The position numbers were made by a program, and so were the translations under genes. Below the pieces are notes generated by a model. It saw nothing but the letters and a program-made list of their open reading frames with translations, ran no database searches and was not told the DNA's origin. From Schmidtea polychroa (lineage: Eukaryota), in NCBI GenBank assembly GCA_044892525.1, contig CM097885.1:189720001-189784000 (forward strand): 64,000 nt of DNA, written 5' to 3'. Positions 1,926-64,000 of this stretch are shown here, one piece after another; positions within the stretch are counted from its first letter, which is position 1, and the number at the start of each line of letters is the position of its first letter.

Positions 1926-1978
1926 GTAAGCTTTTATGCATTATTTTACTGATATCGTTACGTTTAATCGGTTTTCAG

Positions 1979-18422: not shown

Positions 18423-18552
18423 GTAAGTGAATACTGAATTATATTTTGAATATTATCTTGTATATATATATATATATATATGAAATTTTTTTTGAAAATT
18501 AAATACTAACATTGAACTTTTTGAGCCTTTTCGAGACAATATGACCCATAAG

Positions 18553-27066: not shown

Positions 27067-27086
27067 AAGGTAATAATGATGATTGT

Positions 27087-30280: not shown

Positions 30281-30492
30281 TATTATAATAATAAATTACA
30301 TCTGAATTATTACTATTAAGAAATTAACATATACATATATTAAAGTATTATATTCGTATTATATTATGGCGTACATAATTATTATTGTTATTTAGAAATG
30401 CTTAATCGTCAATTTAATGATTTGTTTAGTCAAACCGATATTGTTATAATTTTTGAATATAATTTGAATTCGACTGCTAGTTTTATTTAACA
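30248..30492 (+). repeat. 3' LTR
   Basis: Same sequence as 25659-25903; followed by TSD AACTC. Confidence 0.97.
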
Positions 30493-40266: not shown

Positions 40267-40519
40267 CCAAAATTTTAAATATAAAACATAAATTTCAACT
40301 ATAAAATATAAATTAATCCAAAATTTTAAATATAAAATATAAATTTCAACTATATAATATAAATTAATCCAAAATTTTAAATATAAAGTATGAATTTCAA
40401 CTATGAAATATAAATTAAACCAAAATGTTAAATATAAAATACAAATTTCAACTATATAATATAAATTAATCCAAAATTTTAAACATAAAGTATAAATTTC
40501 AGCTATAAAATATAAATTT
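40267..40519. repeat. Minisatellite, ~5 copies of a 51-bp AT-rich unit
   Basis: ccaaaattttaaatataaaa...ttcaactat...aattaat starts at 40267, 40318, 40369, 40420, 40471. Confidence 0.85.
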
Positions 40520-41910
40520 TGGTTATGAAAGTATTAACTTCAATCTAGAATTTTTAAATTANNNNNNNNNNNNNNNNNNNNNNNNNNNNNNNNNNNNNNN
40601 NNNNNNNNNNNNNNNNNNNNNNNNNNNNNNNNNNNNNNNNNNNNNNNNNNNNNNNNNNNNNNNNNNNNNNNNNNNNNNNNNNNNNNNNNNNNNNNNNNNN
40701 NNNNNNNNNNNNNNNNNNNNNNNNNNNNNNNNNNNNNNNNAGGATCACTCTTCCTAGCGTTATTCTTATCAACCGTATGATTATCATTATTATTATTATT
40801 GCTATTATTTCATTATTAATTTCCAAAAATCGATTGAATCATCGATTTAGGATTTCCCTCCACGACTAAATTTAGAACCTACCCCTTTGCTCCAATAAAA
40901 ATGAACGTAATTCCTAAAATCTATTTTTAGTAACCCCCCCCCCCCCCCTCTCTGAGAAAATGCTAGGACTATTAATTAAATAAGAACATAAGTAGGTGCA
41001 TATATATAGCTATATGAGTAAACGTAGGTAACTATACGTATCTAATAAGTTAATTTAACTCAGGCTTATCAGAGATGGATATCTTAGTTAACTTAGCGTC
41101 CCCAGAACTAAAAGTCAAGTAAAACCTACATTAACTCAAACCAATTCATCGAGGACACTAGGAATACATTGAGACAATCGATACCAACCATGGGACTCCA
41201 CGGAATCAGCCGCACGAATTATCAATAAATGACAAAAAATTATTTTACAAAAAATCGAAGCGATTAACAAAAGAACATGCTAAATTAAATTAGTCAACAA
41301 AACTTCTAACATTACTAGATACAAATCAGACTAAAAATACTAACACAGAGTCATATAACATTCCTTTAAGGCTTTGAACAACCGGCCACTCCATCCGAGT
41401 GAAAGATTCCCATCAAATATCTCTAAAATCGAAAAGCTATGGTTAATAAATGAACTACTTACAAGCAAATCAAAGCGGACTATACCACTCACGACGAGTA
41501 CAACCGAAGGAAAGGCAAGCAGACGAGAAGCTAAGCTCGTTGTTAATACCTGTCGCCTCAGCGTACCCGAATTTAGTGGCAAACGATTTAAACCCTGAAA
41601 TTTTAAATTCGTTATAATATTTAAATTAAAATACATAAAATATAATTTAAATGTTCACTTAGTGATAAATACAAATTTAGAGAAAAATAGTTAATTAAAA
41701 CAAGAGGATTGTTGATAAATTTTTTTTTAGTTATTAGTAGACAAAATATGAAATTTCATTCTATGGTTCCTAGGATTATAAATGTTAGTCTTAAAATAAA
41801 ATATTTCTTTTTATTTTTCAAATTCTTAAAGGGAAAAAGGGTCAACAAAATCCTGTGTTTAACGTCGTATTACAATCAGTATAAAGTGGCTTGATTGTTC
41901 TTTTGTAGAA

Positions 41911-42267
41911 ATGTCCTATTCTGACAGTGGTAGTAACGAAGCAGCCGACCGACAGATGCTTACACGACTCCGGACACGGTACATATGGTACCGTATCCAT
42001 GATTGGAACCGGGGCTTGGACCTCGACAACTGGGGCCCAGTAATCAGGAGTGGGCCGGAACCGGACGCCCCAGCGTGGGTAAAAACAGAGCCCACAAACG
42101 ATTTTTTGCAAGAGGCCCGTGACCGAGCGGCCATCGAGGTGGAAGCAGCCCAGATGCGATTGAGGAAAATCGACTTGCAAATCCGGGCAAACAAGGAAGG
42201 GAAAACCGTAGAGGACCTAGAGGAGGCCGAGACAACCCCGCGGAAGAGGGGAAGGCCTCGCAAGTGA
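41911..42267 (+). CDS. 118-aa orphan ORF with coiled coil and C-terminal AT-hook
   Basis: GC-rich island; ATG preceded by ttcttttgtag and TATAAAG at about 41880; ends TPRKRGRPRK. Confidence 0.55.
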   Translation: MSYSDSGSNEAADRQMLTRLRTRYIWYRIHDWNRGLDLDNWGPVIRSGPEPDAPAWVKTEPTNDFLQEARDRAAIEVEAAQMRLRKIDLQIRANKEGKTVEDLEEAETTPRKRGRPRK

Positions 42268-42488
42268 CCGACCTGACTCATCATCAAAAAATTTTTTTTT
42301 TGCAATTAGCATCAGTTATGACTTAATTAAACTTTAATTTTAGTGACGAACAATTTTATTCCTTTCAATAAATTATCTTATGAATTGCGTGCTTAATGTC
42401 TGAGACTATGTTTATTTATAATATTGATCTTATTATATAATAGAATGAGCGTTATGCTGCAGGAATGAATCATTGAATTTTTATCTAG

Positions 42489-42919
42489 TGTTCAAACTAC
42501 TTGAAAATTTGCGAAAGGACAGGGAAGAAGCCCAAAAACAGGCCGAGGAGCTCCGCATACGAGTAGACAAGCTCAAGGGACGGTGCCGGGAACTAGAAAG
42601 CACCTGGTTTAGTCCCGAGGATATGAAAAAGAAGGTGGCGCAGGTCCTTCAACTGCAGACTCAAGCCGCGCAGGATCAGATGGAGATCCGGGCACTGAAG
42701 CTCCAGCTCCGCGCGTTAGAAACCGAGCGAAATGAACAAGTAGTTCACGGAGCCGCCATAAGCCAAATCCGGCCGTTGACTGTGGAACTAGCAGCAATAT
42801 ACCCTTCGGCCGCGAAAGAGAAACCCAAAAGAAAGCGGTTGGGACGGAACATCCGGGAGAAGTTAAAAAAGGCTAGGTTAGCCGAGTATGAGCGACAAGA
42901 AAAATCTACACCAGTGTAA
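42489..42919 (+). CDS. Coiled-coil/basic ORF, possibly a spliced exon
   Basis: GC-rich open frame (LRIRVDKLKGRCRELE...KPKRKRLGRNIREKLKK) after acceptor-like tttttatctag at 42488; first in-frame ATG is internal. Confidence 0.4.
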
Positions 42920-43326
42920 TTTCCGCGATGTGAACAGTCACTTATGCTAGATACACTGAGTTTTCCTTTTTTTTTTGTTGTTTATTGTTAATGTCTAAAT
43001 ACAAATTTAGTTAAATTAATGTATGAAGTATGTTGTTTGCAAATGTTGAGTGACTGAAAATCGAGGCGTTGAGAGTTGGGAAAACAATTTCGAATAGGGG
43101 ACCGGAGAAAATCGGACACATACCTTCTAACGGTAGTCCGTGAACCCGTGGAGTACTCGACAATTATAGTGCTTTGATGCGCTCACTTTTTGTGGGTACT
43201 CAACCCTTGGTACAGTACCAACGTTGATCACTCAACGGGTACCAAGCGGAAAAACAATGTTGTATTTTGGGTTACGCTGGTAACAGCACTCAATCATTCA
43301 ACCACCAGTAACCCACCATACAAATT

Positions 43327-43347
43327 TGGGGGCTCAGCCGGGATTTG
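43327..43347 (+). promoter_or_regulatory. Primer-binding site, tRNA-Pro
   Basis: TGGGGGCTCAGCCGGGATTTG versus the classical tRNA-Pro PBS TGGGGGCTCGTCCGGGAT(TTG): 19/21 identity. Confidence 0.85.
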
Positions 43348-44041
43348 CAAATTTAATTGGTGAAAGAACCCGAGAATAGATATAATGGAGAGAGTAAAAG
43401 CTGATATAAAGTAATATGCATTCAAGATTGAGCAAATTGTTTTCCCAAACACTTAAACTTAGTACATGGATATGTGAATATGATAAAATGTATGTGAAAT
43501 GTTTAAATGAGTGATTGAAGTTTTAAAGTGTGTCAACATATGAATGTATTAAAAGTGAGTATGAGAATATCGTACGAATAGCGTAGTAATAGAATGAAAT
43601 GATAATAAACGAAAAGTAAAACGAAAACAAAATATAATAAAAATTTTAAACATTAACGATTAATAGAATGTAAAAATAAAGAAATAATAAAAATTTAAAA
43701 ATAGGGAAAAAGGGGGGATAACACGCTAATAAAAATAAACCAAATGAACAAAGTAGTTAAACTTAATCAGAAAACGTGTAAATAGGGCGATAACGAATGG
43801 GATATGGGTTATATATAATAAAACGATTATGATAAAATCACAAGAACATGAGAGAAGTTTGCGCGGAATAGAACATTAAACCAAGGGAGACGGGGTTGTT
43901 AAGAGTGATAAGTAGAATGTAAAGGTTTATTGAAGCATTAATAAAATAAGGTATTCAGGATATTAGGGGGAAAATGATAAAGGGGGAAAATGACGCGGAA
44001 TACTAATAAAAAGGGAACCTTAATTAATAAATCTTACTTAG

Positions 44042-44524
44042 ATGGAATCAACCGGCTACATTACAAAGAGACTCGAAAAATTCGTAGATTTAACACACAA
44101 TTCGTTACAACGGCTAAATCGCAAAGCGGAACAATTGGTGAAAATCCAAGACGAGATGAGCTTGAAGCCAAGACCGCAAGCTGAGGACATATGTGTAATG
44201 ATGAAAATAGCAACACCTAATGCAGAATTGACCACTAAAAGAGTCTATCAAATTCAAAATTTACGATTAGATAATGCCAAATTCAACATCAAATGGCAGG
44301 AGATAATGATGAAAATGGGAACGATCGAAGAAGAAATTAAAGAAGCAATCGAACATCAAGTTAAAAATTTTAGAAAATGCTTCATATGCAGAACCAATGA
44401 AATACGAGTAATGACGATCCCATGTGGTCATTTATGTTACTGCGAGAATTGCGCAGAGAAAATTAAACGATGCAACGTATGCGATACGAATGTTAGAGAG
44501 AAAATTGTAATATACCTCCCGTAA
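44042..44524 (+). CDS. Coiled-coil plus C-terminal C3HC4 RING (IAP/MDM2-type) ORF upstream of gag
   Basis: CFICRTNEIRVMTIPCGHLCYCENCAEKIKRCNVC followed by VIYLP* at the extreme C-terminus. Confidence 0.85.
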   Translation: MESTGYITKRLEKFVDLTHNSLQRLNRKAEQLVKIQDEMSLKPRPQAEDICVMMKIATPNAELTTKRVYQIQNLRLDNAKFNIKWQEIMMKMGTIEEEIKEAIEHQVKNFRKCFICRTNEIRVMTIPCGHLCYCENCAEKIKRCNVCDTNVREKIVIYLP

Positions 44525-45260
44525 GGAGATGTTGTCAAATAAATTTCTTGTGAATGAATATGAAGTGATAAAATTATTATATTAAAAATCCATTATAGCA
44601 ACCGAAAGGTATAAAACATACGTCGAACATAGACATATAAAGGACACAAAATACGTTAAATAAATAGACAAGCAACACAGCAATTAGAACTAAAATCAGA
44701 ATTGAATGCAGGACTGATCATAGTCGTATGAATGAGCTGATCGATAAGATCAGTACGATTTTTACTTCCAATTTTCTTTTCTTCCTGTTTTATTATTTTG
44801 GCATAGAGTGATACGACAATGAGGGGATGACAAGTGAATCGTCCTTACGACACTTGCCCGGATGGGGAAATCCTGATCACCCTGACGAGAGAATGTAGTA
44901 GGATCCATCGCAAATGTTGGGGAGTTTCTGTCGAGTGACTGATCACCACTTGTGGGAAATGAACGAACGCGATTATTATATTTTTTTTTGTCTGGGAGAC
45001 TGGGGTTGACTAAAAGGGTGAATAAAAAAAAAAAAAAAAAAAAAAATAGAAATAAAAATCGAAAAACGCGCGCTAAATGTTAAAAATTTAATCCGAGAGC
45101 AGCTGCGGATTTGAAGAAACCGTTTTTGGACTTCAAATCAGATGAGAAATAATGATTTTTCCCTAGCGAGTGATGAGGCACCCGAGTACAGCGGCTAACC
45201 ACCGGACTGTAGTGTCCAGGAGATTATCAGCCAAGGGACTGATGATGCTGGATCACCCAA

Positions 45261-46235
45261 TACAAAAACCCGGATACCACACCGAGTATTGGGCGCACTT
45301 TTTTTGAGTTGCTAGCGGGACTTGATACAAAAACCCGGACGGGTAGCGAGCGAGAGAGACCCAGTTACCTACACCGAGTATCAAGGAGCCCAGTGAAACG
45401 GTTGTGAGATGCGAGTCAACCGGTAAAGGACTCGTACTCAATAGGCAACCAAGATTGGACCAGTTGTGAGGCGGAAGACCGAAAGTCAACTGCATATCCA
45501 ATTTCCTTTTATCTTCACTAATCGGGAGATCTGGTTCATCACTTTTGAGAGCACGATCGAGGCGATTAGGCATTTCCATGTTTTTTGAATCCTGACAGAT
45601 AGGATGTTTTTTTTTCTTCGTGATTATTGCTAGCAGGGGTCGGTACAAAACCCGGATGCCCACACCGAGTACCGATAGGCCCAGTGAAACGGCGATGAGA
45701 TTAGAGTTACCGGTATTAGACTCTTTTCAATAAGCGGCCAAGAATTGAGCCAGTTGTGAGGCCTCAGCAGATTAGGAATTTGAGTAGGAGGAGCCTTAAA
45801 TTTTTAATTAGTCCGAAAGCCAACTGTCAACTCAATTTAATCGCGGTAGGGACGATAGTAGGTGTAAAAACCGAAGGCGTCGAGGGGTTGAAGAAACCTC
45901 ATTTAGGGCATTTGAAACCGGTCAGGGACCGAAGACCGCGAATATGGCGTAATGGTGTAAAAGCCCAGGCGTCGAGGAGTCGTAAAAGACTTCAGATTAT
46001 GATTAAACCGGCCGGAAGCCGATGCCGACGTGGAGGTCTAACAAACCAAAGCGTTGATGGGTAATAATGGATTATATGGCGTAACGGTGTAAAAGCCCAG
46101 ACGTCGAGGAGTCGTAAAAGACTTCATGAGATTAAAATGAGTTGATTAAACCGGCCAGGGAGCCGATGGTAATTGAGTGAAATGATTTAAATGAAATAGG
46201 AGAGTCGATTAAACCGGCCAGGGAGCCGATGGTAA
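45261..46235. repeat. Modular imperfect direct repeats in the long gag leader
   Basis: TACAAAA(A)CCCGGA x3 (45261, 45326, 45644); ACACCGAGTA x3; 52-bp repeat 45943-45994 / 46075-46126; GATTAAACCGGCCAGGGAGCCGATGGTAA x2 (46143, 46207). Confidence 0.8.
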
Positions 46236-47216
46236 ATAAATGTAGACGCAGAGATCGCGCGAACCAAAGCATCGATGATTAAATATGAATTTGATTAAAT
46301 CGAAATAGATTAAGTGCGTTAAATATATAATGAGTAAAGGAAAATTATGATAAAGCGCCGGCGCAAGTGAAAATTAAACCAGTTTTTGGATGGGGAAAAG
46401 CGAACGAATAGATAGTAGTTGAATTATTGAATTTTATTTATTAATGATATGTTTATTTTGATACTTATGTGATTGATGTTATATTTCTATGATAATTATA
46501 AAAGGGATAGATAATTGATACGACTATATAGATAATTGATACGAGTTATAGATAATTTAAAATCAACTTAAAATCAAAATGGGGCGAATAGCGAGAAGTG
46601 TAGAAAAGCTAGAAAATTTGAAGCGAAGGGACAGTAAAATAAAGGGAAAAAGGAAAGTAAATGAAGGGTTTAGTAAAGAGAATTTATGATATGTACTAGA
46701 GGTGTTAATTATTTTAGAACAAAGCAAACAATTCAGAAAGAAATCAAAGAAATCAAGAAAGCAATAGCAATCAAGAGATATAGAGAAATCAATTAGAAGC
46801 GAAGAATCAAAGAAATTAATAAAACCAAATCCAAGAAGAGTTAGAGAATCGTAAAGATTAAAGCGAGAAAAATACTTAGAAAACATCGAGCTCGATTGAT
46901 AAAGTAGAAAATTTATCAAAGGATATTAAAAGGAGAAAAAATTGATAGCATAGCTAACCGAACGAGGCGAAAAAGTAAAGGAAACCTCAGTTTATTGGAA
47001 AAGGAAGAGATACAAAAGGCCAAGACCAACAGAAAACTACACAGGAAGCCAGCATCAGTAGAAACAGTATTTGAATCAGACAGTTTAACAAACGAATTTG
47101 AGAACAGCGACGATCTTAAACGAACCGAACTAGATCCGATAAGTGACATTGAATCATCAGACGAGGAAGGAAATAGTTCAGAGTCAACCAATATAACAAT
47201 TTTGTGTCAAGAAATA

Positions 47217-50200
47217 ATGACAGACGGAATTCCAAATGTAACAGGGCTAACGGACCCACCGGAAACAAGTAATGTGCACGTCAACATTGGAGAATTCAGA
47301 GAGAAATTTCGAGGAGAGCCATTCGATGGAAATATAAACCAGCTGGAAACGTTTATAAAGGAATTCGAAGTATACATTACGATATGTCACTGGCCAGATA
47401 TAGTCGTACGAGAACGAATACCCCTATATCTAAAGGGAAGCGCCCAAGATGTATACTTGGAGGCGAAATGTGATGCAACAAAGTTGAGAACGTGGAAAGA
47501 GATCAAGGAGTTTTTAATAAAAACATTCGGTACCGAAAAAGAGGGAAATCGAAAAATGTTAGACTTTCTGCATCGAAAGCAGAAATATAACGAATCCAAC
47601 GCACTGTACGCATGCGAATTGAGACGACTAGCACGAGAAGCCTTCGATTCAAATCAACCAGTTCCGGAAGACAAAATAATAGCCGTATTCGTAGATGGCA
47701 TGAAACGAGAGGATATACGAGCAACCTTGGGATGCCGAGCACCAGAGACGCTGGAAGAAGCACTAAAAATCGCTAACAAATGTGAAACCTACTTAACACC
47801 AATACAAGTAGCAGCAATGACAGCAGCTCCAGCAGCTCCAGCGGCAACAGCAACAACCACAAACAACCAAGTCAATAATGCAAATCCAGTAATGAATCAA
47901 TTCATCCCAGGATCGCAACAGTTGTTCAAAACCCCACAAACGAGGAACCAAGACAATGGAGGTAATATTCAAAATTTTACTAATAATTTCAGGAACAACG
48001 ACAATCGAACGTGCAACATATGCCAACGATCAGGGCATTGGAGCAATGAATGTTATAGAGCAAGGATGTGTCAAAAGTGTGGGAGAAGAGGCCACACGGA
48101 AAACATCTGCAGAGTTCCCACGATGTCTACGGGCAGAGGAGGAACTAGAACCTGCTACAATTGTAACCAGCCTGGACACATGGTTAGAGAATGCACGATG
48201 AGAGCCAAACCAAATCAACCAGGATCAAACAACCCAATTCAGAACACGAAAATCAACCTCATGCAGGAAATCGAACAATTAAAAGATATGATCCAACGAA
48301 TACCGGTTAATAATCAACAACAACGAATCAACATGATGCAGAGCACCGAGGAAATCCGGAAGCAACCAAGTAAGCAACAACAAGATCAACAACGAATCGA
48401 ATGGCAAAGATTGCAAAACGAAGAAGCCAGAGAAATTCAAGAAAGATGGAAACAACGGGAAGCGAATCCCGGAAGAATAAATATGATGAGGTTAACAAAT
48501 AAAGAGGAATCGCACACTGCGGAGCAGTGTGTTAACAACGAAGGGAGTGATCTGATAAAAACGACGAAAGAAAATGAGATTGATCCACAGACAAAATTGA
48601 GCAGCGAAGAGAAAATACAATTGATTAAAGAATTTACCAAAGAGGAGAAAGAAAGGAGACAAAAGAAAGATGAGAGCCAAGACGAATCAAAAAGCAATGA
48701 GATAGTTACAAAAAATCGAATTCAGAGGGTACTACTACAAAAAATCGAAGACAGAATCAAAAACGAAAACCCTACATTAACTAAGGAACAAATCAAAGAA
48801 AAAGTGAAAGAGCATTGGTTCAGGAAAAATGAGTGGTTCGAAAAGAAAGAACCACATACCAAAGCTAAAATAAACATGTTGAGACAAATGCGGAGTGATC
48901 AGACGGATCAGGAAGATGAGAAAAGTGAGGTGAGTAGCCTGGGAGGCGAATTATTTCAGTCAAGTGAGGAAAACAACGAACCGAAAACACCTCCAAACAG
49001 TGAAACACCTCAAAGTAGTGATAGGAGTGAAAATGATGACATGAAATCAATGATAGAAAAAGATGATGAGGAGATATTTGAGGAAATTTTCGACACAGTA
49101 ACAGAAATAGAGCGGAATGAGAGCTACATCAACGAGCTAACATATAGAAAATGCGTAAAACTTATAACTCAAGTATACCAGTGTGAAGGAGGTATAATAA
49201 CGGCAGCATGGAAAGATTTAGCAACAAGATATAAAGAGAAACTAAAGGAAGCAGGCCCAGATCAATATCAGGTAAGTATTCAACACCCCGAGATTCAGAT
49301 ACAGACTATTGAATTAAAAGGAACAAATACCGATGAACTGTACAACTGGGTACAGGAAAAAATGGGAACGAGCCATAAAAATAAACAATTATATGTCGAT
49401 GGTTACAAAGTTAAAAGGGGCATACATTTGGTAGATGCGATGATATGGCCCAACGAAACTAACATCTTAACCTTAGAGAAAACCAGAGACGACGAATCAG
49501 TGGCAGAAATGTTCCAGAAAATCCAACAAGTGTTTAACAATGAAGTGGAACCAGAATTGGAAAAGATCGAACGAAAAATAATGAAAGAAAACCAAATAAT
49601 CTTGGTTAAACAAGCTATCGATCAGGCAAGAAAATATATTAATAGACTGAGAGAAAGATGGCCACAACTAATGAAACAATTTGTCAAAGACGTACGAGAC
49701 ACAGAAATTATGAGATTCGAAGACGAACGAGCGACAGAATTGATATCTAAATACGGAGAATACGAGAGAACCAAATGCGAACGAGAAACGATAAAAATAA
49801 AGGTGAAGTTGCCAAATGAAGAGAAACAAATAATAGAAGTTGACCCCGATTGCCAAGTTGACGAGTTAGTGCAAATCATAGATCAAGAGATCATCCAAAA
49901 AGCTCGAGAAAATAGTGAGGATGGAATGATCGAAGATGTGATAATAATGTACAACCGACATATGTTAGAAAGAGGAGACCGAACTGTAATTTACGAACTA
50001 GGAATCTGGGAAGATGGAGCCGTCATCAATATAATCGCGATGGATGAGCCATCGGGTGGACACAAAAACGCCACCAAAACAGAGCAACAAATTAAAAGAT
50101 TCCAATGGGGGATGAGAGTAAAGATGGATCGAATAATAGATATTTATAACCATTGGCTAAAGGATGATAAACTAAAAGTAGCAGCCTTCAATGACGAAGA

Positions 50201-53200
50201 TTGCAAACTGATACCATGGAAAAAAGTGTGGATCGAAAGGGAAGCTCGATGGGATTGGGAGCAGCAAAAGTTGGAACCAAATTGGATAGATAATATACCT
50301 GAGGAGATCGCAGCAGTATGGGTAAGAGAGAAACCAATCGATGCTTACCAGGATATATTACCACAAGAATTCCAAAATGAGTTACAATCAGGAGAAGATG
50401 AGGAGATACGAGAACCGGTAAGGTTAGCACCATTCACGTGGAAAATTGAGAATTGGATGGAAAAGATAAAATCAGCAAGGGAAGAGAAAATCACACGATT
50501 AGTAAGTCCACCGTTCTACTCAGGATTAGGTGAGTACAAGATGAAATTGCGAATATACCCGAACGGAGATGGGGTAGGAAAAGGAAGTTATGTGTCGGCA
50601 TTCTTCATCATCTGCAAAGGGAATTATGACGATAAGGTACCAGGGCCGTTTAGCAGAAAGGTAACGATAGCGATCGAACCACTGAAAGATAGCCTTAACA
50701 TACATAAAGAAACAATGAAACCAGACCCAAGGAGCACATGCTACCAACGACCAACAACATCAGAAAATACCGCTTCTGGGACGTCTAAATTAATACGTCT
50801 AAATTACATTGAGAATGAACAATCAATATTTGTGAAAGACAATGCTATCCAGATAAGAGTAGAAGTTGAAACAGAGCAAGAAATGAACCAACGACTGAAC
50901 ATACCAGAAAATCAACCGAGAATCTGTATGATGAGGAGAAGAGTGCCTGATTCAGGATATCTACCAATAGACGCCGACGCAGATGAGGAGGAAGCAGCAA
51001 CATTGTTGGAAGCACAAAAATGTAAGGAATTGATGGAGATATTACAAAACGGGGCGAAAAATCGTCGACGAGCGGTAGTAGAACTACCAAAATGGATAGC
51101 CGAATCATGCAAAAGGATTCAAAACCTACGAAAAATCGTTAAAGCGATTGAAGAATATCGACGGGTATACGTATGGTACCCTGAACAATTTGGTGAAATC
51201 ATTCGGAAATGGAAACAACAAGAGTGGGCCGAAAACTTACCTGAGAAATATCAACTAAAAATATTCTTGCCAGATTTTGAACCAATGGAAAAGGAATTCT
51301 ACTCAACAGCCAAGGTCAGGGAAGTTAAAAAGAGAATACCTTATGAACTCCCATTCCACTTACAACACGAGGGACGATCATTAGACGACGATATCGAAAT
51401 TGGTGTGACACCACTCCAAGGAGAAATTGTGAACAGATTAACGGTGAGTAAAATTACAGGGAGAGAATTAAGAAGAAGAGAAATAAAGCAAAAATCATCT
51501 ACACAACAACCAGGAAGTTTAGACACACCAGAAGTTCCAAATGCGGTTAGTGAAGTAACGATCGAAACAACGGGAGAAGACGAAATACTAGACGAATTAC
51601 AAGAGATAGTAGAAACAGGCGAGATAATGAGAGCATCGCAATCAGGAGATCTATTCATCGACGAAGGTGAACCAACAACTGATGATCTAGATGGATTTGT
51701 TTGTGCGCAAAGACAACCAGTGGAAACGACAGAAGCCGAGACGGATTTAGATAAGGTGGGGGGAAGTGCCAATAAAGATGTAACCACAACCGATGAATGG
51801 AGTAACTGGAGAGTAGATCCAGGAGCGACCACGTCAAAAGATACAACTTACAATCCGCCAAAACGGAAAGAAACCGGAACGGCTATGGATCGACGAACAA
51901 GAGGAAGACCAAAAACAGATAAAGCAGAGGTGGAACCAAAATCCAAAATGCAAGCACAAATGGAACAGGTAAAAACTAAAATGGATAAACTAAGCGCATT
52001 AGTAAAACAAGTCAAAGTGAAAACAAACGTCCGGGAACAAGGGACACGATGGATAAACGACTTATTAGCTAACATGTTAGCGTTAGCAAATCCAGATGTG
52101 AAAAGAGTAATGAGGAAGGATAATATTCCGACCGAAGCCAAACAATTATGGGCGGTATTGAAACCGATAATAATGAAAATCATGGATAATAAAATTCGAT
52201 TAACGTTAAAGGATCCCGTGGAACTCAGATTAATTGTGGAACATCTGTTAAGCAGATCAGAAGACCAAAATCGATATTTAGTGGGATTAGCGTATTTGGT
52301 GTATAACGTCATTGGTCAATATAAAAAACGAATGCCAAAATATAACGCAACTGGTTATGAATTCACAGTAACAGAAATAATCAAACAATCAATAGAACCA
52401 TATATACTTGAACAAGGGGGATGGAGAAACTTCATCGAATCAACTGGGAAGAAAGATCAAACGGAGATGATGCAAGCAAAGTTACGCGATTTGCTAACGG
52501 AATTCGAAGGAACAATCAATATGAACGACCCAAGAGCAAGCCGAAAGGGAATAAATGCCATAATAACCACGATATTGATATGGATGATGTGCATCAAAGG
52601 AACGGAGTCATTTGCAGTATACGACTGCGACAACATAAAAATCCATGAGAAATATTCATTAAAGGATACGGAAGACTGTAAAGCGGCAAACCCAAGAAAA
52701 TTACAAACAGTCATGGCATCAGTCTCGTATAACGTATATCAAGAAGCAGATTTCATCAAAACCATGGTCCAAGAATGTACGGTAACCAGAAAGATATTTG
52801 CACATCACTGCGGTTCATCCTCCCACTCAACAATCATAGAACCGGGATTGGAATCGACAGTAATATTACTATCAAGAGAGGAATGCGAGGAAGGATTCCG
52901 ATCAGGGAGAATCCACTTAAGGCAAGGGATTGAAATTGCTGCAGAACCAGGAAAAATAAAAACGACTCGCGTGTATACGGCGGGCAGAATCACTAAAGGA
53001 GATGGAACATGTGAGACAGGAACGTACACCTTGAACGGACAACTGGTTAGTGGAGTGGTCGTGATAGAAAGCTACGAAGCTAAATTAGAAAGGTATCAAG
53101 GTTATTTCGACCCTGACACGCAAGCAATGAAGAAATACCCAAGTTGTCTCGCATCAGATCGATCATGTTCAACCGGAATGTCAACTCTGGTATACCATGC

Positions 53201-55667: not shown

Positions 55668-58600
55668 ATGAAGATGAAAAGGAACAACTCAGACAACTAC
55701 TGATTGAGTTTAAAGATATTTTTGCGGCTTCAGATTTGGATCTGGGTACTAGCGATGTAACTCAACACATTATACCATTAACAGATGAGACACCCATAAC
55801 CTTGAGACCATATCGATTGGCTGAAGCACAAAAAACGGTAGCAGAGGAAGAAGTACAAAAGATGTTAGATGCTGGTGTAATAGAACCTAGTTGCTCACCA
55901 TGGCAATTCCCAGTAGTAATGGTCAAAAAGAAAGATGGCACACAGAGATTTTGTATTGACTATCGGAGGTTGAATGCAGTAACTAAAAGGGATACGTACC
56001 CACTGCCAGACATAAACGAAATGTTACAGATGTTGCATGGAGCAGCATACTTTACATCTTTAGATCTAAAGAGTGGATACTGGCAAATTAAAGTTAAAGA
56101 GGAAGATAGAGAAAAGACAGCCTTTACCATCGGAAAAGATTTATATCAGTTTAAAAAGATGCCATTTGGATTAACAAACGCACCTGCTTCGTTTCAGAGA
56201 TGTATGAACTTTGTGACACACGGGATCAAACAATGTATGGTGTATATTGATGATCTGTTAATTTATTCAGGTACTTTCGAGCAACACTTAATCGACATCA
56301 GAAACATATTCATAAGACTGAAACAATGGAAGCTGAAGTTGAAACCGTCAAAATGCGATTGGGCAAAGGAGAGAGTCACATTTTTAGGACACATTGTGTC
56401 GGCAAAAGGAAAAGAACCAGATCCGAGAAACGTTGAGAAAATAAAGAATTGTCCGATACCAAAAACCGTGACTCAGGTGCAAGAATTTCTGGGATTATGC
56501 GGTTACTACCGCAAGTTCATCAAAAATTATGCAACTATCGCAAAACCAATTCAGGAACTAACAAAAAAGGATACTCCATTTCTGTGGGAAAGGGAACAGC
56601 AAATAGCGTTCGAATCGCTAAGAGATAAATTAATAGCCTCGCCTATCTTAATCCACCCAGATTTCAAAAAGCCTTTTTTATTAGCAACTGATGCAAGTGG
56701 ATACGCATCAGGAGCTGTGCTAGGACAATGGGATGAGGAGAAAAGAGAAAGAGTCATCGGATATTATAGCAAGACGTTCAAAAAGCACGAAAAGAATTAC
56801 TCAGTCACAGAAAGAGAAGCTTTAGCAATAATTCAGGCGATAAAACATTTCAAATATTTATTATGGGGGCACGAGATAATTATTACTACGGATCACCAAC
56901 CTCTAGTTTGGTTGGGCCAACATAAAGAAGCATCTAGCCGATTAATGAGATGGGCAATGCAATTACAGGAATATTCCCCATATATCAAGTTCAAGTCAGG
57001 AAAAGCAAACGCAAATGCAGATTGCATGTCGAGATTCGTATTTGAAGAACTCATGGATCATGACGTCAGGCGAATATGCATGATAATCGCGGAAGATATC
57101 GATTTTACCAATCTAAGGAACGAACAAAAGGAAGACAGCGAATTGAAACTAATAATCGAATTCCTGGATAAAAACGATATGAAAATATTCAACAACGAGG
57201 ATCGATTGAAAGAACATATGGAGAAAAATCGTCACAGATATACAATCGAGAAAGAATGGCTATTGGTAATGGATGGCGACAAACGACTGATGTGTCTACC
57301 AGAAAGTAGACGGAAAGAAATTATGATTCAATACCACGACGGTAAATTGGGCGGACATATGTCAGCCAAGAAAACAGAAGCAAGGCTCAAACAGAAATAT
57401 TACTGGCCAAATATGAGCGATGACGTGAAAGAATGGATTAAGAACTGCTTGATATGCGCAACCAGAAAAACAACGGGCAGTAAACTAAAGCCGCCATTGA
57501 AACCAATGCCGATACCGCCAGAACCGATGACAATGATTGCAATGGATGTAGTTGGACCACTACCAGAGACTAACAGTGGAAATGTGTATATATTGGTAAT
57601 AACTGATTATCTGACTAAGTTCCCTGAAGCATTTGCGATGCCAGACCAAAAAGCACGAACGGTTGCAAGGATATTAGTGGAAGAGATCTGCTGCAGATAT
57701 GGAACACCAAAACAAATCTTAACTGACCAAGGAACTAATTTCATGAGCGAGATAATAAATGAAGTGACAAATTATTTTAGAATTGCCAAATTGAGAACCT
57801 CACCATACCACCCGCAAACGAATGGTCAGACAGAAAGATTTAACGGCATACTAATAGACATGATGTCCAATTACGTGAGTAAACATCAAAAGGACTGGGA
57901 TGAATATATTAAGTTGTGTCTAATGGCTTATCGAATGTCAATACACTCAGCAACGAAAATGAGTCCGTTTAAACTCATGTATGGAAGGGAATGCAACATG
58001 CCGATGGATCTCGAATACCAACCGCCAATCTCACAATATATGGAAATAGATGATTATGTGACCAAGTTCAAGGAGAGAATGCAAGAAATATGGAAAACCG
58101 CAGGGATGAACATCCGATTCAACCAAGAGAGTTATAAGGAATTACATGATAAAAAGAAGAACGTGCAAAACCATCAATTTAAAGTCGGAGATTGGGTTAT
58201 TATAGAAACACCCGAATTAATCCCAGGAACAGCAAAGAAATTACAACGTAATGGCAGAGGGCCATATGAAATCATCCATGTAAACGAGAACAACGCTAGA
58301 GTGAAGTTGGTTAACAATCCACTAATTAGACCCATTTATGTGAATACATGTCGATGCAAAGCAGTAGCGAAAACTGCCACTAAAGACCCAGAAACAAGGA
58401 GGATAATTACGAGATCACAAACAAATGCCACAACGGAACCAGAAGTAAGCGGTAGATTAACTAGATCACAGACAAGACGGATATTCATGTTGAGAGGAGA
58501 AACAAGCAGCAGCGCCCATAAAGGAACTGAAGCAGAAAGCGAAGCTGACGCAATGGCAAGGAGCCAAGCAACATGGAATATGACAGTAAAAATAGCACGA

Positions 58601-61243
58601 GAAATTGTACCAGAATGGGCCGATATAACCAATAAATACCAAGTATTGGGCAAACTAATGTTAGTAGCAGAAAGATATGCGAAAGGACGAAGATATGCCG
58701 AAGGATTACAAATACCGACTCAAATATATGAACTAATCCGGAGATTACCAATCATGTTCCTAACAAGTGATTTGAGTAATAACTGGCCAATCCATCATGC
58801 AGTGAAAGCAGGACAAGAAAAACGAGCTTTAGAGATTATACGAATAATGGAAAACTGCAAACAATCAACAAACGTCAAAAACAGTAAAGGAAAAACTCCA
58901 CTGATGAAAGCCATAGCAATAGGCGCATCAAGAGATGTACTCAGAGAATTATTAAGAACGGGATCCACGTTGAAAGAAAAAGACAACAAACAACGAACCG
59001 TATTACGTTATGCCGTCAGGTCAAAAAGACCTAGTATAGTGAACTTTATCACAGGAAATGCAACAACCGAAGAAGCCGAGGTGTTGGGACAGAGCATTGA
59101 ACCAATTCTGGAAGCCATCAGAGGAAACTTAGACAGAACCGCAGCAATGTTAATCAAATGGAAACAAAACGAATTAAGAGCGGAAGTAATTGATATAAAT
59201 CAATTCCAAAACAACGAAAATATCGTACTAAGAAGCGCCATATACTCAAGACCACCAATGCCAAAAACCATTAAAGCAATATTACAAAGAAATAGAGCAG
59301 AATTGACAGGTAATTGGTGGAAATGCACAAAAGCACATACGATGAAAAAGCAACTAGAAATACTAGTGTGGGAATGGCACCGAAAACAACGGAAATATCA
59401 AGGAACCAAAGAAGAACGAGAAAGTATCCACAATGATAAAAAAGAGATAATTAAAAAATACGAAGAGATGATCAAAGCGACAAATGTCGAGGACGACATT
59501 TTTGGGAAAACCCCGGGTGAGAGGAATGACGACGATGACGACGACGAAAGGATGGGGGATAACGATAACAACCCAGAGGAAAACGACAGAGAACAAAATC
59601 CGGAGGGCGGAGAAACAACGGATGATGATGAGGAGTTGGAAGAAGACGAAGATGACCAATGTCGAGGTGAAGATCAAGGATTCGACAAAACAGAAAACAA
59701 AAAACGAAAGTCCCCACTACATAGCATAGTGTTTCGAAATCAAATCCAGCCAATCCTACTACAAAGAATATTTATAATATTAACATCTATCTGCTTAACG
59801 GAAACAAAAAATATGAGAATCGTAAGAGAAGCTTTCCAAGAAGGCGAAGTATTTATGATAAAAGTCAGTGATTACGACGGTAACGCCGTCGGAATATGTG
59901 TGCAACTAATGGAAGGAACAGGAGTAAGTTGTGATTTCAGATCGATAACAAAAGGAAAGATCTTTAGTAGCCAAAAAAGAGACCCCAGGCTATGCGGAGA
60001 TTATGACATCTGTAGGGACATAACAACAGAGGAAATGGAACTAGAAAGAGCCAATGAAACCGGAGTACATTTTCAACTTAACATTCTGGAAGAAGGTATC
60101 GAAATAGAGGATAAAGGGAGTCGATCAATTACACATGTATGCATCAGAGAAGACAGAGATATATGCATAGTAACTGATATGACACAGGATCACAAATTCT
60201 TCTGGGGAGAGGTCAAACCAAATACCCCTACTGTGGTATGCGCAGGAACACAAGGGATAGTAGTGTGTAAAGGAACAAGAACTGCACCAAGAAAAGACAA
60301 ACCAAGGAGTATGGCAATTAAACAAGGTCCATTGACGGAGAAAACAACCAAGAAGCCCAAGAAATCAGTTAGTACAAAAACAACAACAGAGCTAAATCGA
60401 AGCGAATTAATAACAACAACAACATGGATTAACGAAGTAATTAAAGACGAAAGACGGGAAGTGCAGATAACTATTAACCTCAACAAGAAAGGTGAAGAGG
60501 TAATTACAGTCAAAAACCAAGAAGGAGAACCAATCATAAGGATATGTGTAATGGATAAGACGGGAATAATCGACTGTACAACAACACCGATAGACAAAGG
60601 TACAGACGTTAAAATGGAGACAGGGAAACGGAAAGAACGATACCAAGTATGTATCCTTAAGAAAGGAAGAGGAGCCAGCGTATGTCAACCAATAACTCGA
60701 CAAAAACCCCAATTAATAAACATACCGTGGATACCCCGAGATCAGGAAGGGGGAGAGAAACGGGAAAATCACAGTCACCTAACAGAAAAAGAGAAGGAAC
60801 GATTACATCAAGCATTCAAGAAAATCAAAGCACCAGAAACAAACACCACAGGTAGTACAATATTAACGACAGTAAAAACAAATAATGGAACAACGATAAT
60901 CACAAAGATGATATGGATAACTAGCGCGATAGTAAGCACGATAATAGCGTTAGCAATGATTCAGTGGATAAGAACCACCAAAAGATGTAAACAAAAACCG
61001 GGAAACCGAAGAAAATGGCCCAAAGTGGAAAAATTTGAATACGGTATTCCAACCGAGAATCTGAATCTAGAAGAATACGAGGTGGTAGAGGACCCCGGAT
61101 CCAGTGGATTGTGGATGTCGGAACTACCAAGAATACCCACACCCAACGAATGGACACACGAAGTCGATATATACCGATTAACGGACGAAAGATATGGGGG
61201 GATGCGCACGTTGCATTCCGGCCCCATGGCGACACTGGTATAA
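55658..61243 (+). CDS. pol: Giant polyprotein part 2: RT, RNase H, integrase, ankyrin repeats, acidic tract, signal peptide/ectodomain/TM
   Basis: Frame open from 55658; YIDD 56243-56254; LATDASG; HDGKLGGH...CLIC; MDVVGP, TDQG, NGQTER; ANK GKTPLMKAI 58778-59160; TM MIWITSAIVSTIIALAMIQWI about 60907-60970. Confidence 0.92.
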   Translation, partial: RTLNEDEKEQLRQLLIEFKDIFAASDLDLGTSDVTQHIIPLTDETPITLRPYRLAEAQKTVAEEEVQKMLDAGVIEPSCSPWQFPVVMVKKKDGTQRFCIDYRRLNAVTKRDTYPLPDINEMLQMLHGAAYFTSLDLKSGYWQIKVKEEDREKTAFTIGKDLYQFKKMPFGLTNAPASFQRCMNFVTHGIKQCMVYIDDLLIYSGTFEQHLIDIRNIFIRLKQWKLKLKPSKCDWAKERVTFLGHIVSAKGKEPDPRNVEKIKNCPIPKTVTQVQEFLGLCGYYRKFIKNYATIAKPIQELTKKDTPFLWEREQQIAFESLRDKLIASPILIHPDFKKPFLLATDASGYASGAVLGQWDEEKRERVIGYYSKTFKKHEKNYSVTEREALAIIQAIKHFKYLLWGHEIIITTDHQPLVWLGQHKEASSRLMRWAMQLQEYSPYIKFKSGKANANADCMSRFVFEELMDHDVRRICMIIAEDIDFTNLRNEQKEDSELKLIIEFLDKNDMKIFNNEDRLKEHMEKNRHRYTIEKEWLLVMDGDKRLMCLPESRRKEIMIQYHDGKLGGHMSAKKTEARLKQKYYWPNMSDDVKEWIKNCLICATRKTTGSKLKPPLKPMPIPPEPMTMIAMDVVGPLPETNSGNVYILVITDYLTKFPEAFAMPDQKARTVARILVEEICCRYGTPKQILTDQGTNFMSEIINEVTNYFRIAKLRTSPYHPQTNGQTERFNGILIDMMSNYVSKHQKDWDEYIKLCLMAYRMSIHSATKMSPFKLMYGRECNMPMDLEYQPPISQYMEIDDYVTKFKERMQEIWKTAGMNIRFNQESYKELHDKKKNVQNHQFKVGDWVIIETPELIPGTAKKLQRNGRGPYEIIHVNENNARVKLVNNPLIRPIYVNTCRCKAVAKTATKDPETRRIITRSQTNATTEPEVSGRLTRSQTRRIFMLRGETSSSAHKGTEAESEADAMARSQATWNMTVKIAREIVPEWADITNKYQVLGKLMLVAERYAKGRRYAEGLQIPTQIYELIRRLPIMFLTSDLSNNWPIHHAVKAGQEKRALEIIRIMENCKQSTNVKNSKGKTPLMKAIAIGASRDVLRELLRTGSTLKEKDNKQRTVLRYAVRSKRPSIVNFITGNATTEEAEVLGQSIEPILEAIRGNLDRTAAMLIKWKQNELRAEVIDINQFQNNENIVLRSAIYSRPPMPKTIKAILQRNRAELTGNWWKCTKAHTMKKQLEILVWEWHRKQRKYQGTKEERESIHNDKKEIIKKYEEMIKATNVEDDIFGKTPGERNDDDDDDERMGDNDNNPEENDREQNPEGGETTDDDEELEEDEDDQCRGEDQGFDKTENKKRKSPLHSIVFRNQIQPILLQRIFIILTSICLTETKNMRIVREAFQEGEVFMIKVSDYDGNAVGICVQLMEGTGVSCDFRSITKGKIFSSQKRDPRLCGDYDICRDITTEEMELERANETGVHFQLNILEEGIEIEDKGSRSITHVCIREDRDICIVTDMTQDHKFFWGEVKPNTPTVVCAGTQGIVVCKGTRTAPRKDKPRSMAIKQGPLTEKTTKKPKKSVSTKTTTELNRSELITTTTWINEVIKDERREVQITINLNKKGEEVITVKNQEGEPIIRICVMDKTGIIDCTTTPIDKGTDVKMETGKRKERYQVCILKKGRGASVCQPITRQKPQLINIPWIPRDQEGGEKRENHSHLTEKEKERLHQAFKKIKAPETNTTGSTILTTVKTNNGTTIITKMIWITSAIVSTIIALAMIQWIRTTKRCKQKPGNRRKWPKVEKFEYGIPTENLNLEEYEVVEDPGSSGLWMSELPRIPTPNEWTHEVDIYRLTDERYGGMRTLHSGPMATLV

Positions 61244-61389
61244 CAAGAGGAGGAGCTGTTGTAAATAATGTATAAATGGAATGATAAAAGTAGTGATAAT
61301 AGTAGTATGTACAAAATAAAAATAGAAAAATTAAAACAATATGTAGAAAAATCAAAAACAAGTATGATGACCATGTATTATAAATAGGA

Positions 61390-61819
61390 ATGAACCAGAG
61401 AAACGAAGAGCAGGAACACCCAAATGGGATACCACATGTTGTTGAAGTAAGAGAACAGCCGCTTATGAATGTACATCCAGTAGACATGATGGAAATGAAC
61501 GTGCCAAACCAGCCGAGTCAGCCAACAGGATCCATGTGGAGGGCACAGTGTGAATTAATGACCCAATTGACAAATCAGACTCAAGAGCACTGGGTACGAA
61601 ACCAAACGGCGTTGATAGAGAGTATTAATAGAAATACAACACCAAATAATCGCGCAACTGGAATATAATAACAATCAGTTAATAAGCCAAATCAGATGGC
61701 AAGCGGAAGAAATTAGAAGGTTGCATGAAAATCGACAACATGATGAGATTGCCAGTTTAGTCGAGTGGATGACCGGACTGCCAGGAACTGAAGAACCGGA
61801 CTCGACGGTAGATGTATAG
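61390..61819 (+). CDS. Orphan ~142-aa ORF with probable +1 frameshift near 61617
   Basis: Track ORF 61390-61668; the +1 frame is open 61619-61819 (RVLIEIQHQIIAQLEY...DSTVDV*) and ends at the same post-stop motif as neighbouring genes. Confidence 0.5.
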
Positions 61820-61908
61820 GAGAGAAAGGAGTGAAATGTAAATAATCCTGTAAATAAATAGAGTTATAATCAAGTAGAAATCCCAAGATTAAAAATCATC
61901 ATTGTAGA

Positions 61909-63332
61909 ATGCAAAACAAAGCGGAAGAGAACCGGAGAGAAGCAGAGGAACAAAAGATTAACTATGAATTGATGAGAAAATATCAAGCCAAGCCGGACGA
62001 GTTCGAAGAGAGGCTATTATGTGCCGATGCAGCATGTAGAAGACTACTGATTGGAGCAAGTCAAACTCGATGCGGGTGTAGATTATGCCGAGGGTGTGAT
62101 ATAAGATTAGCCAAGCTAAAGAGAGAAACTTGTCCAGGATGTGGAGAAGCATTTAAGTTGGTTCCCACTGGTACAATACCGGATAGAGCAATGAACCGAG
62201 AAATCAGAGAAGTGAAAATAAGATGCACCCAAAGGTCATGCGAATGGACAGGTCGAGTAAAGGAGTTAAGAGCCCATACAGACGTATGCGAATATTTAGA
62301 ATTGGAATGCGAAGCATGCACGGTAAAGTTTTTACGAAAAGAGAAAACCAAACATAAAGGGGAATGCGAAGCGCGAACGGAAAAATGCGAATTTTGCGGA
62401 GAAACTGCTAATTGGAGAGAAATCGAAATGGAACATCGAAACGCAGTAGAAAGACGGATTTGCGACGAATATACAGGGAGATGCCCAAACGAGTGTGGAG
62501 AAATTAACAACGTCAGTTAAATGAACATTGGGAGATATGCACGAGAAAAGCAATAAAATACCCAATGGTGACATTCGACTGTAGAGCACAATTACCAGCA
62601 GAAGAAATGAAGAAGCATGTGGAGGAGAACACATTCGAACACATGCAAAAGATGATGAGAGCAATAGAGTTAACAGCAAGAGCAATTGAAGACGTCAAAG
62701 ACGAACTCAAATCACATAAAATCATGATAAAAGAAATGCTGAGCTCACAGGAAAGCTTCGAAAATACGAGAGAAGCCGTAACACAAAGGATGTTGAAATT
62801 AGACGACAAATTAGTCGAAGTAACTAAATTACAAACCAAATGGACTACAAAGGAACTGACAACAGAGGAACTACCAATACTACCATACATGTGGAAAATC
62901 CAAGGAATAACGGAAATAATGGAGCGAGCAAAGCAAGGAATCCAGACAACGATAGTGAGCAAACCATTCTACGCCAAGAAACATGGATACAAGATGAAAT
63001 TGAGATGGTTTCCAAATGGAGAGGGAAAGTTTAAAGATCGGTGCGTGTCCATATATATGCAAATTTGTAAAGGAGATTTTGACGACCTAATAGCATGGCC
63101 ATTCCGACATAGATTAAAAATATCTCTCTTAGGATCAAAAAAGACACATATAATGTGCTGTCGAGCATCCAGTCCAGCATGGAATAAACCGATTACAGAG
63201 GTTAATCCTGCGGTAGGAGTAGCAGAGTTTATGCAGCTATACCAATTTAATGAAGGGTCCTACATAGAAAAGGATACTATATTCTTCCTAATCGAACTAG
63301 ACGAGGAAGGACCAACAATAGAAATACGATAG
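61909..63332 (+). CDS. Intronless full-length TRAF-like protein (RING, TRAF zinc fingers, coiled coil, MATH), split by a 1-nt frameshift near 62506
   Basis: C-x4-C-x11-CGC-x2-C-x2-C...CPGC; CPNECGEI continues in the -1 frame as QRQLNEHWEIC...MKKHVEEN; MATH WKIQG...FYAKKHGYKMKLRWFPNG...KGDFDDLIAWPF; ~474 aa if repaired. Confidence 0.88.
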
Positions 63333-63472
63333 ACGGATAGAGGGGAACTGTAAATATTTTGTAAAAACGATGTAAAGTAAATATAAAGTTATTGTATACA
63401 GTAAAGTAACTTGCCAAAACCATAAAAATTAGAAAAAGAAAATGTAAAAAGAAATGATGAAATTTATTATAG

Positions 63473-64000
63473 ATGATTAATCAAGAGAGACCGAATATCC
63501 GAAAGAAAACGATCACAATGAGAGAGGAAGAGGACAATATGTCACCTAGAGAAAGAGTGAAGGATGCGGAAGTCAGCAAAACAAAACCAAGTAGTTACAC
63601 ATATTATCGAAGAATGGGAAACGATTATAATTTGGTACATGAAAATTTGAAACTGGGAGATAATGAACAATTCAGATGTGAGAAGCAGAGATATCTGTCA
63701 TTTGAACATCAGACCATTTTCACCAAGGAACAGAGCCGAGCGCTAGCACGCGACGGTATTTTCTTCTCCGGAAAACCAGAGATACCCGATCAAGTAACGT
63801 GTCGTTTCTGTAAAGGGAAATTAGCAGAATGGAAAAAAGGAGAACACCCAAAGGAGGAACATCGTAGACGATTTCCAACTTGTCTATTCGTACTGGGATT
63901 TGATGTACACAACAAACCGGAAATCAAATACGAAGCCTTGGAGAAATTGAAAACTGAAGACGAAAAAGGAGGGAAAATGAGCATCGCGATAACCAGAATC
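63473..64000 (+). CDS. BIR-domain (IAP-like) protein, 3'-truncated by the window; absent from the ORF track
   Basis: 176 open codons; EKQRYLSF...LARDGIFFSG...DQVTCRFCKGKLAEWKKGEHPKEEHRRRFPTC = CX2CX16HX6C BIR at about 63680-63892. Confidence 0.9.
   Translation, partial: MINQERPNIRKKTITMREEEDNMSPRERVKDAEVSKTKPSSYTYYRRMGNDYNLVHENLKLGDNEQFRCEKQRYLSFEHQTIFTKEQSRALARDGIFFSGKPEIPDQVTCRFCKGKLAEWKKGEHPKEEHRRRFPTCLFVLGFDVHNKPEIKYEALEKLKTEDEKGGKMSIAITRI

Follow-up and report, generated by a model that had tools for sequence, protein, structure and literature searches.

We analysed a 64,000-nucleotide stretch of the Schmidtea polychroa genome (GenBank assembly GCA_044892525.1, contig CM097885.1, forward-strand positions 189,720,001 to 189,784,000; hereafter the window), in which accessory genes of a giant retrotransposon start directly behind TAG trinucleotides that look like 3' splice acceptors. 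The plus-strand interval 40741-64000 is one Ty3/gypsy retroelement of more than 23 kb with an A-rich plus strand, and on its domain architecture, compared with section 7 of PMC6431247, it is Burro-like (this and the other papers are cited from the parts of their text available to us). An N gap at 40562-40740 bounds the element at its 5' edge, and its 3' part runs beyond the window. Open reading frames (ORFs) A and B probably lie in the 5' long terminal repeat (LTR), ORF C between the primer site and gag, and D, E/F and G after pol, to judge from the following features:

40741-43322, plus strand: probable 5' LTR holding ORFs A and B, ending in CA at 43321-43322, placed from the primer-site position and published Burro sizes
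41911-42267, plus strand: ORF A, putative gene of 118 aa with 57% GC and a basic C-terminus; codon z 2.1; no Pfam match or relatives
42449-42919, plus strand: ORF B, putative gene, a coiled-coil-like stop-free frame whose first in-frame ATG is at 42623; codon z 1.9
43327-43347, plus strand: probable primer-binding site of tRNA-Pro type, assigned from sequence
44042-44524, plus strand: ORF C, 160 aa with a C-terminal RING finger (Pfam zf-C3HC4_3, 4.9e-12)
47217-55667, plus strand: polyprotein part 1, with Gag, three CCHC motifs, ubiquitin-like, MATH, Bcl-2-like (weak), fusion glycoprotein and protease
55658-61243, plus strand: polyprotein part 2, with reverse transcriptase, RNase H, integrase, ankyrin and a long tail; frame break relative to part 1 at 55658-55667
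61390-61818, plus strand: ORF D, 92 aa to 61668, then a coding-like continuation in another frame to 61818; z 2.9 and 2.5; no domain
61909-63332, plus strand: TRAF-like gene in two frames, E (61909-62520, Cys-rich zinc-finger half) and F (62508-63332, MATH half); TRAF-MATH 1.6e-27
63473-64000, plus strand: ORF G, BIR-domain (IAP-like), cut by the window end; Pfam BIR 2e-14

According to Pfam matches, Gag with its CCHC knuckles (three motifs) is followed by protease (PR), reverse transcriptase (RT), RNase H (RH) and integrase (IN) in gypsy order, and a Monjiviricetes_fusion match (1.3e-68, amino acids 2066-2389) lies in frame between gag and the protease at 2590. MATH, ankyrin, BIR and RING cargo domains are all present; the Bcl-2-like stretch is weak (Bcl-xL, E 0.39), the ubiquitin-like match (UBXL, 0.0016) falls below cut-off, and the Pfam search of the polyprotein gave no match for the dUTPase-like region. 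Burro/GYPSM1, giant Ty3/gypsy elements of dugesiid planarians, share the three-CCHC Gag, the MATH region, perhaps the ubiquitin-like and Bcl-2-like regions (weakly matched here), a mononegavirus-type fusion protein between gag and pol, the PR-RT-RH-IN order, accessory ORFs, a length above 23 kb, and ankyrin, BIR and RING cargo (PMC6431247 section 7). They differ in that here the ubiquitin-like match precedes MATH. The polyprotein occupies 2,816 plus about 1,860 codons in two frames; that of Burro is a single one of ~4,900-5,100 aa. In this copy the reading frame is broken where B begins, at the junction of the two polyprotein halves, within D, and between E and F. None of the three published BURRO1 primers matches the window at up to 3 mismatches (their target may be outside it), so we call the element Burro-like, and it is probably not Burro1 itself.

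We place A and B provisionally in the 5' LTR because the primer site starts at 43327, after the CA at 43321-43322; no long direct repeat of the 5' region occurs inside the window, and a 3' LTR would fall beyond it, Burro elements having two LTRs and exceeding 30 kb in all. The sequence at 43327-43347 presumably belongs with tRNA-Pro primer sites, which we take it to resemble; Rfam gave no tRNA match for the primer-site region, a tRNA gene search found none, and Rfam returned no match at gathering level and 3 chance-level matches in 40741-47300. ORFs A and B are GC-rich (57% and 50%) and lie upstream of the primer site, so they are probably LTR-encoded genes. The leader before gag carries imperfect tandem repeats at 45250-46300 and 46700-46910 (plus strand) and a 103-codon coding-like open frame at 46908-47216 (plus strand, z 2.2) that precedes the first gag ATG, and an acceptor-like CAG stands at 47160, 56 nt upstream of that ATG. 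Ahead of the element, a tandem repeat with a 51-nt period (40244-40538) adjoins the N gap.

An earlier note on this DNA had reported five TAG-(0-2 nt)-ATG sites in front of accessory ORFs, and all five are present: the TAGs end at 41908, 44041, 61387, 61907 and 63472, the ATGs start at 41911, 44042, 61390, 61909 and 63473 (offsets 2, 0, 2, 1 and 0), and the splice junctions it proposed fall on the first exon bases. It had also described the sites as one operon-like cassette. This is unsupported, since they lie in three regions, one probably in the 5' LTR, one between the primer site and gag, and three after pol, which are separated by the primer site and the 14 kb polyprotein. The sites, together with a sixth, and the spacers that hold the last three are:

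41906-41908, plus strand: acceptor TAG of ORF A, offset 2, TTGTAG; AG-free for 20 nt; branch-like A at -15
42441-42447, plus strand: sixth TAG-a-ATG, absent from the earlier note's list; its frame closes after 7 codons here; AG-free for 37 nt; branch-like A at -17
44039-44041, plus strand: acceptor TAG of ORF C, offset 0; AG-free for 26 nt; branch-like A at -15 and -19
61244-61389, plus strand: spacer pol to D, with the motif TGTAAATA at +17 and acceptor TAG 61385-61387, offset 2; homologous to the F to G spacer
61819-61908, plus strand: spacer D to E, with TGTAAATA at +19 and +31 and acceptor TAG 61905-61907, offset 1
63333-63472, plus strand: spacer F to G, with TGTAAATA at +17 and acceptor TAG 63470-63472, offset 0

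The TAG-ATG pattern exceeds chance. A TAG precedes 23 of the 581 other plus-strand ATGs of the element, and 6 of 120 non-coding ATGs, by 0-2 nt, and local shuffles give 0.06-0.08 per site, with a product over the sites of 1.4e-6. Among accessory ORFs of at least 80 aa, 5 of 7 carry the motif (P 2e-6 to 6e-5), or 5 of 8 when the polyprotein start is included (P 5e-6 to 1.5e-4); the polyprotein ATG (47217) has no adjoining YAG. Allowing any shared trinucleotide raises P to 1.6e-4 to 5e-4 for offsets 0-2 and to 2e-3 for offsets 0-4. None of the 16 minus-strand ORFs shows the motif. The two accessory ORFs that lack it, 62565 and 42623, look like broken genes: the former is the C-terminal half of the TRAF gene, with ORF 61909 as its N-terminal half and an overlap of the two frames at 62508-62520, and the latter belongs to ORF B, which is probably broken at its 5' end. 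The B frame opens at 42449, just after the sixth TAG-a-ATG, whose own ATG does not lead into it.

The surroundings of the TAGs, which the earlier note did not use, support its claim that the sites act as 3' splice acceptors from which subgenomic mRNAs are made. Relative to 98 non-coding TAGs, the five have a higher T count at -15 to -4 (p 0.004) and a longer AG-free zone of 18-26 nt (p 0.04); with all 295 element TAGs as background the values are 0.0006 and 0.006, the two features being correlated. A branch-like TRAY with its A at -15 to -18 occurs at 4 of the 5 sites (5 of 6 including the sixth) versus 14 of 97 background TAGs (p 0.003); that interval was picked after inspection, and one of -12 to -25 gives 27 of 97 and p 0.03. 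Of the four host introns in the window that were confirmed by translation, a motif of this kind is found in three (at -12, -17 and -15) and not in the fourth. The flatworm spliced-leader (SL) acceptor motif UUNYAG (PMC12582326) fits 3 of the 5 sites (3 of 6 with the sixth) as against 7% of 102 background TAGs. Four of the five acceptors have 2-5 ATGs in the 100 nt upstream, which would need removal, and the AG is flush with the AUG, where background TAGs have a median of 32 nt to the next ATG and 5 of 97 have one within 2 nt. A composite acceptor filter passes 20 element sites, these five among them, so that the features are supportive without being unique. Taken from sequence features, use of the TAG sites as splice acceptors is likely.

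The spacer length of 90-146 nt given by the earlier note stands for three of the five sites, with 144, 89 and 140 nt from stop to AG, where the 89 nt requires the out-of-frame continuation of ORF D to 61818; it fails at 44042, which lies 1.1 kb past the previous stop, and at 41911, which has no upstream ORF in the window. Same-strand genes at most 300 bp apart are pol-D-E/F-G and A-B (89, 140, 144 and 176 nt), and do not include ORF C or ORF A with respect to anything upstream. The pol to D and F to G spacers are homologous over their whole length (z 3.9, none of 400 shuffles, about 60% of 155 columns), and D to E weakly resembles F to G (p 0.02, 15 pairs tested). Within the homologous pair the offset and the 5' neighbours of the TAG differ while the branch-like motif and the TAG persist. 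Since these spacers are homologous, they may represent a duplicated expression module, a unit of 3' untranslated region (UTR) plus acceptor that we infer was copied between cargo genes.

The motif TGTAAATA (plus-strand positions 61260, 61837, 61849, 63349 and 43777) follows a purine run behind the stops of pol, the D continuation and F, at +17, +19 and +17. Each of the three downstream spacers contains it, and a further copy lies 264 nt upstream of the C acceptor, compared with one copy in the 14 kb polyprotein sequence. Its positional P of 2.5e-4 is inflated by the spacer homology, and P is 0.11 when position is ignored. We take it to match both a Pumilio element and a forkhead-type DNA site. 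As a CFIm site it is disfavoured; planarians reportedly lack UGUA upstream of poly(A) signals, as far as the available text of PMC5068929 goes. The poly(A)-type signals that the earlier note had seen are there, as hexamers in all three spacers, and they are at chance level (shuffle P 0.71), so we rejected them as evidence.

C, E, F and G have domain matches or codon z values of 3.9-6.8. ORF A ends in a basic stretch that presumably resembles an AT-hook. The searches for relatives covered A, B, C and the N-terminus of E. For ORF C, 2 of 25 candidates were relatives (93% and 82% identical, both 160 aa with the same start Met). No relatives were found for ORF A, none among 129 candidates for ORF B, for which the protein atlas gave only generic coiled-coil matches, and none among 228 candidates in longer proteins for the N-terminus of E.

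Two candidate 5' splice donors stand out in the element:

43552-43562, plus strand: candidate donor (GT at 43555) at the position of a retroviral major donor; 11 ATGs between the primer site and the donor
49269-49279, plus strand: U1-complementary donor, perfect at 11 of 11 (GT at 49272), phase 0 after codon 685; best of 913 GT sites

The former scores 19, which is the best between the primer site and ORF C, 228 nt past the primer site, and compares with 16-19 for host donors (the intron-2 donor of the host gene Serinc being left out of the rescoring). The latter has P 0.003 under a codon-order shuffle and 0.026 under a synonymous shuffle with the protein fixed. The donors at 43239 and 43280 (score 16) follow ATG-free stretches and are weaker, in a region whose folding is somewhat more stable than that of shuffled sequence (z -2.0). 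The element's two best donors, 49269-49279 and 54810-54820 (plus strand), are both in phase 0 within the polyprotein, the first after the Gag-side region and the second between the envelope-like domain and the protease. Donors inside the polyprotein may yield truncated Gag RNAs or keep premature poly(A) addition in check. A search of the element for an SL-like RNA of its own (ATG|GT plus an Sm-like site) found none.

We propose that the accessory genes of this Burro-like element would be expressed from separate spliced mRNAs, and that the unspliced RNA would serve as genome. Each start codon would sit directly behind a host-type 3' acceptor made of a branch-like A 15-18 nt upstream, a T-rich AG-free stretch and the TAG; splicing would remove the upstream ORF and the AUG-rich spacer, and the leader would supply the whole 5' UTR. 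After pol, a spacer module of 90-145 nt (stop codon, purine run, TGTAAATA, A-rich stretch, branch point, TAG, ATG) would have been copied between genes. Leaders would come mainly from the host SL RNA, in the manner of flatworm operons, and to a minor extent from cis-splicing to these acceptors, and to this reading we give a rough probability of 0.42; a mixture of SL and cis-splicing is plausible. The operon-like spacing and the AG flush with the AUG slightly favour the SL over cis-splicing. Intercistronic distances have a median of 99 bp in S. mansoni operons (PMC12582326) and peak at about 100 bp in those of M. lignano (PMC8629364), and an acceptor without an upstream donor is a default SL target (PMC8629364). 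In S. mediterranea a stem-cell-enriched SL has been described (PMC12582326, PMC7346339). That the array amounts to an operon is possible on its sequence. It is less likely than not that the retrotransposon has built a eukaryotic operon in full, adding captured genes that act against cell death or in the ubiquitin pathway (TRAF, IAP and RING) by copying a ~140-nt intercistronic module and leaving the host SL machinery to cut the polycistron into mRNAs of one gene each.

Several observations limit the proposal or weigh against it. Two or three of the spacers are duplicates of each other, so only 3-4 of the five sites are independent; with 0.065 per site, P is then between about 3e-4 and 2e-5. 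A and D count as putative genes (codon z 2.1 and 2.9). A second copy of the element was sought in GTDB, where 117 pattern hits yielded 2 loci, both 25-27 aa matches on bacterial contigs, which we rejected. The acceptor signals are weaker than those of the host introns, whose AG-free zones run to 33-46 nt compared with 18-26 nt here, and UUNYAG is found at 2 of the 4 host cis introns as well. T makes up 25-26% of the three downstream spacers, and only the A to B spacer is T-rich (43%). Planarian cleavage sites are U-rich (PMC5068929); given this, the low T content and the chance-level hexamers, internal 3' ends are unsupported. Cis donors out-compete the SL (PMC4558846), and the perfect donor at 49272 lies upstream of D, E and G. 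Finally, flatworm SLs end in AUG (PMC12582326), and at A, D and E this AUG would not share the frame of the ORF but open upstream frames of 45, 2 and 18 codons. In S. mansoni the SL AUG is in frame in only 28% of cases (PMC9851317, citing Cheng 2006), so the frame argument does not discriminate.

The strongest alternative uses the same acceptors, mainly cis-spliced from an LTR or leader donor in the style of complex retroviruses with one LTR poly(A) site, while the 49272 donor would give a shortened Gag mRNA. We rate this version somewhat below SL splicing. The quality of the 49272 donor and the strength of the one at 43555 speak for it, as do the ATG-free stretches before 43239 and 43280, and it makes internal poly(A) sites unnecessary. 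Read in phase 0 from 49272, the D acceptor gives one codon and then a stop, which is weak support, since any offset-2 ATG followed by A does so. The strong leader donor has its 11 ATGs to account for, however, and the candidates free of ATGs do no better than the weakest host donor. Cis-splicing alone also leaves the operon-sized spacers and the AG flush with the AUG unexplained, retroviral acceptors usually being tens of bases away from the AUG on its upstream side. Flatworm acceptors are in any case widely used by both kinds of splicing, least at operon sites, with cis-splicing at 20-95% of SL acceptors across species (PMC12582326).

It is rather improbable that the pattern has no present function and reflects chance, one duplicated spacer and AG|ATG junctions brought in with captured host genes. 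The homology of the pol to D and F to G spacers is what such a history would leave, the host gene Serinc, one of the two in the window, also starts TAG|ATG, the element copy carries several frame breaks, and the motif was chosen after looking. Against this, A, C and the sixth site stand in unrelated spacers (all 12 pairs that include A, B or C have p of at least 0.245), P stays near 1e-4 even with 3-4 independent sites while further splice-signal features co-occur, and within the duplicated pair the branch-like motif and TAG have outlasted changes in their neighbours.

Still less probable is that each spacer is a small internal promoter, with TGTAAATA as a forkhead-type site and unspliced transcripts starting in the spacer. 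The distribution of the motif fits, as does a TATAAA about 30 nt before the ATG of A. However, TGTAAATA is fixed to the upstream stop and not to the ATG, its distance to which varies (-128, -71/-59 and -124); no TATA-like element keeps a fixed spacing, D and G have ATGs within 25 nt upstream of their AG, and the branch-like, T-rich and AG-free features would go unexplained. Translational coupling, in which ribosomes would end an upstream ORF at the TAG and start again at the ATG beside it, is very improbable and was rejected at 4 of 5 sites: the TAG closes an ATG-led ORF only at D (39 codons, within the spacer), at 4 of 5 sites (5 of 6) it ends none, and the real upstream stops are at least 89 nt away.

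Complex retroviruses such as foamy viruses and lentiviruses express accessory ORFs that lie after pol and in the LTR through alternative 3' acceptors. The element differs from them in that its acceptors are flush with the AUG, its cargo consists of host-like apoptosis and ubiquitin genes, and no clean leader donor was identified. Foamy-like accessory ORFs are mentioned in PMC6431247; the available text of that paper is silent on how accessory ORFs are expressed ("trans-splic" has 0 occurrences). The closest retrotransposon is Cer1 of C. elegans (PMC3315495), a gypsy-type element that makes a sub-genomic mRNA through host splice sites, and whose splice sites must be skipped for genomic RNA. Its 2.4-kb mRNA occurs with and without SL1 (PMC3315495). 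Cer1 has one SL site and one cis-spliced 2.4-kb mRNA, in contrast to an array of genes with acceptors at the AUG. Flatworm SL operons (PMC12582326, PMC8629364, PMC5832876) share with the element same-strand genes spaced by ~100 nt; in them a UUNYAG-type acceptor precedes the downstream gene, and here the motif fits 3 of the 5 sites. Here, unlike in those operons, the arrangement is inside a retroelement whose genomic RNA must stay whole, the U-rich cleavage context is missing, and SL use is only proposed. Links between SLs and mobile elements exist in S. mansoni, where six SL exons are merged with transposons (PMC5832876).

The earlier note had held that a transposon polycistron resolved by the host SL would be remarkable. 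Cer1 already provides a retrotransposon mRNA that carries a host SL; the operon-type use would be new. Neither Burro splicing nor SL-resolved retrotransposon gene arrays were described in the literature searched, outside of which lie most subscription papers, including Grohme 2018 and a 2026 Burro1 study, and the available texts of PMC8532177, PMC11410931, PMC13238120, PMC7346339 and PMC3796463 do not describe Burro splicing. The acceptor pattern is real and previously undescribed within the literature searched, and the element type is already known. The same literature holds no description of how genes behind a 14-kb polyprotein in a 30-kb element are expressed. Burro elements carry apoptosis regulators, and the IAP of Burro1 is reported, second-hand, to protect planarian stem cells (PMC13465017). 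If the SL is the donor, a mobile element would be using operon logic, and a reusable spacer would explain how cargo genes are added and switched on; on the operon reading, SL availability would set the balance between accessory expression and intact genomic RNA. If splicing is in cis, the element would have a splicing programme like that of complex retroviruses in a Ty3/gypsy context, which is useful and less surprising. The base-exact junctions allow immediate checking against existing planarian RNA data.

Outside the element, the window contains two host genes, and Serinc supplies a comparator for the TAG-ATG sites:

16085-33817, plus strand: Serinc host gene with 3 exons, starting TAG|ATG; its 15-kb second intron holds other elements
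16082-16087, plus strand: Serinc TAG|ATG, comparator outside the element; AG-free for 44 nt; branch-like A at -15

Because it starts TAG|ATG, Serinc may be trans-spliced or have a 5' UTR intron. An ordinary 4.8-kb gypsy element (25659-30492, plus strand) has identical 245-nt LTRs and so was inserted recently; none of its three ORF starts has a TAG at 0-2 nt. The second host gene encodes an EF-hand protein (1094-10946, plus strand) with introns of 53 nt and 8.6 kb, and an inverted repeat of 84 nt with 99% complementarity and a 12-nt loop lies at 4007-4186. By eye, we also noted a putative decayed reverse-transcriptase-like stretch at 13900-15250 (minus strand) and a putative decayed DNA-transposase-like stretch at 35800-37500 (plus strand).

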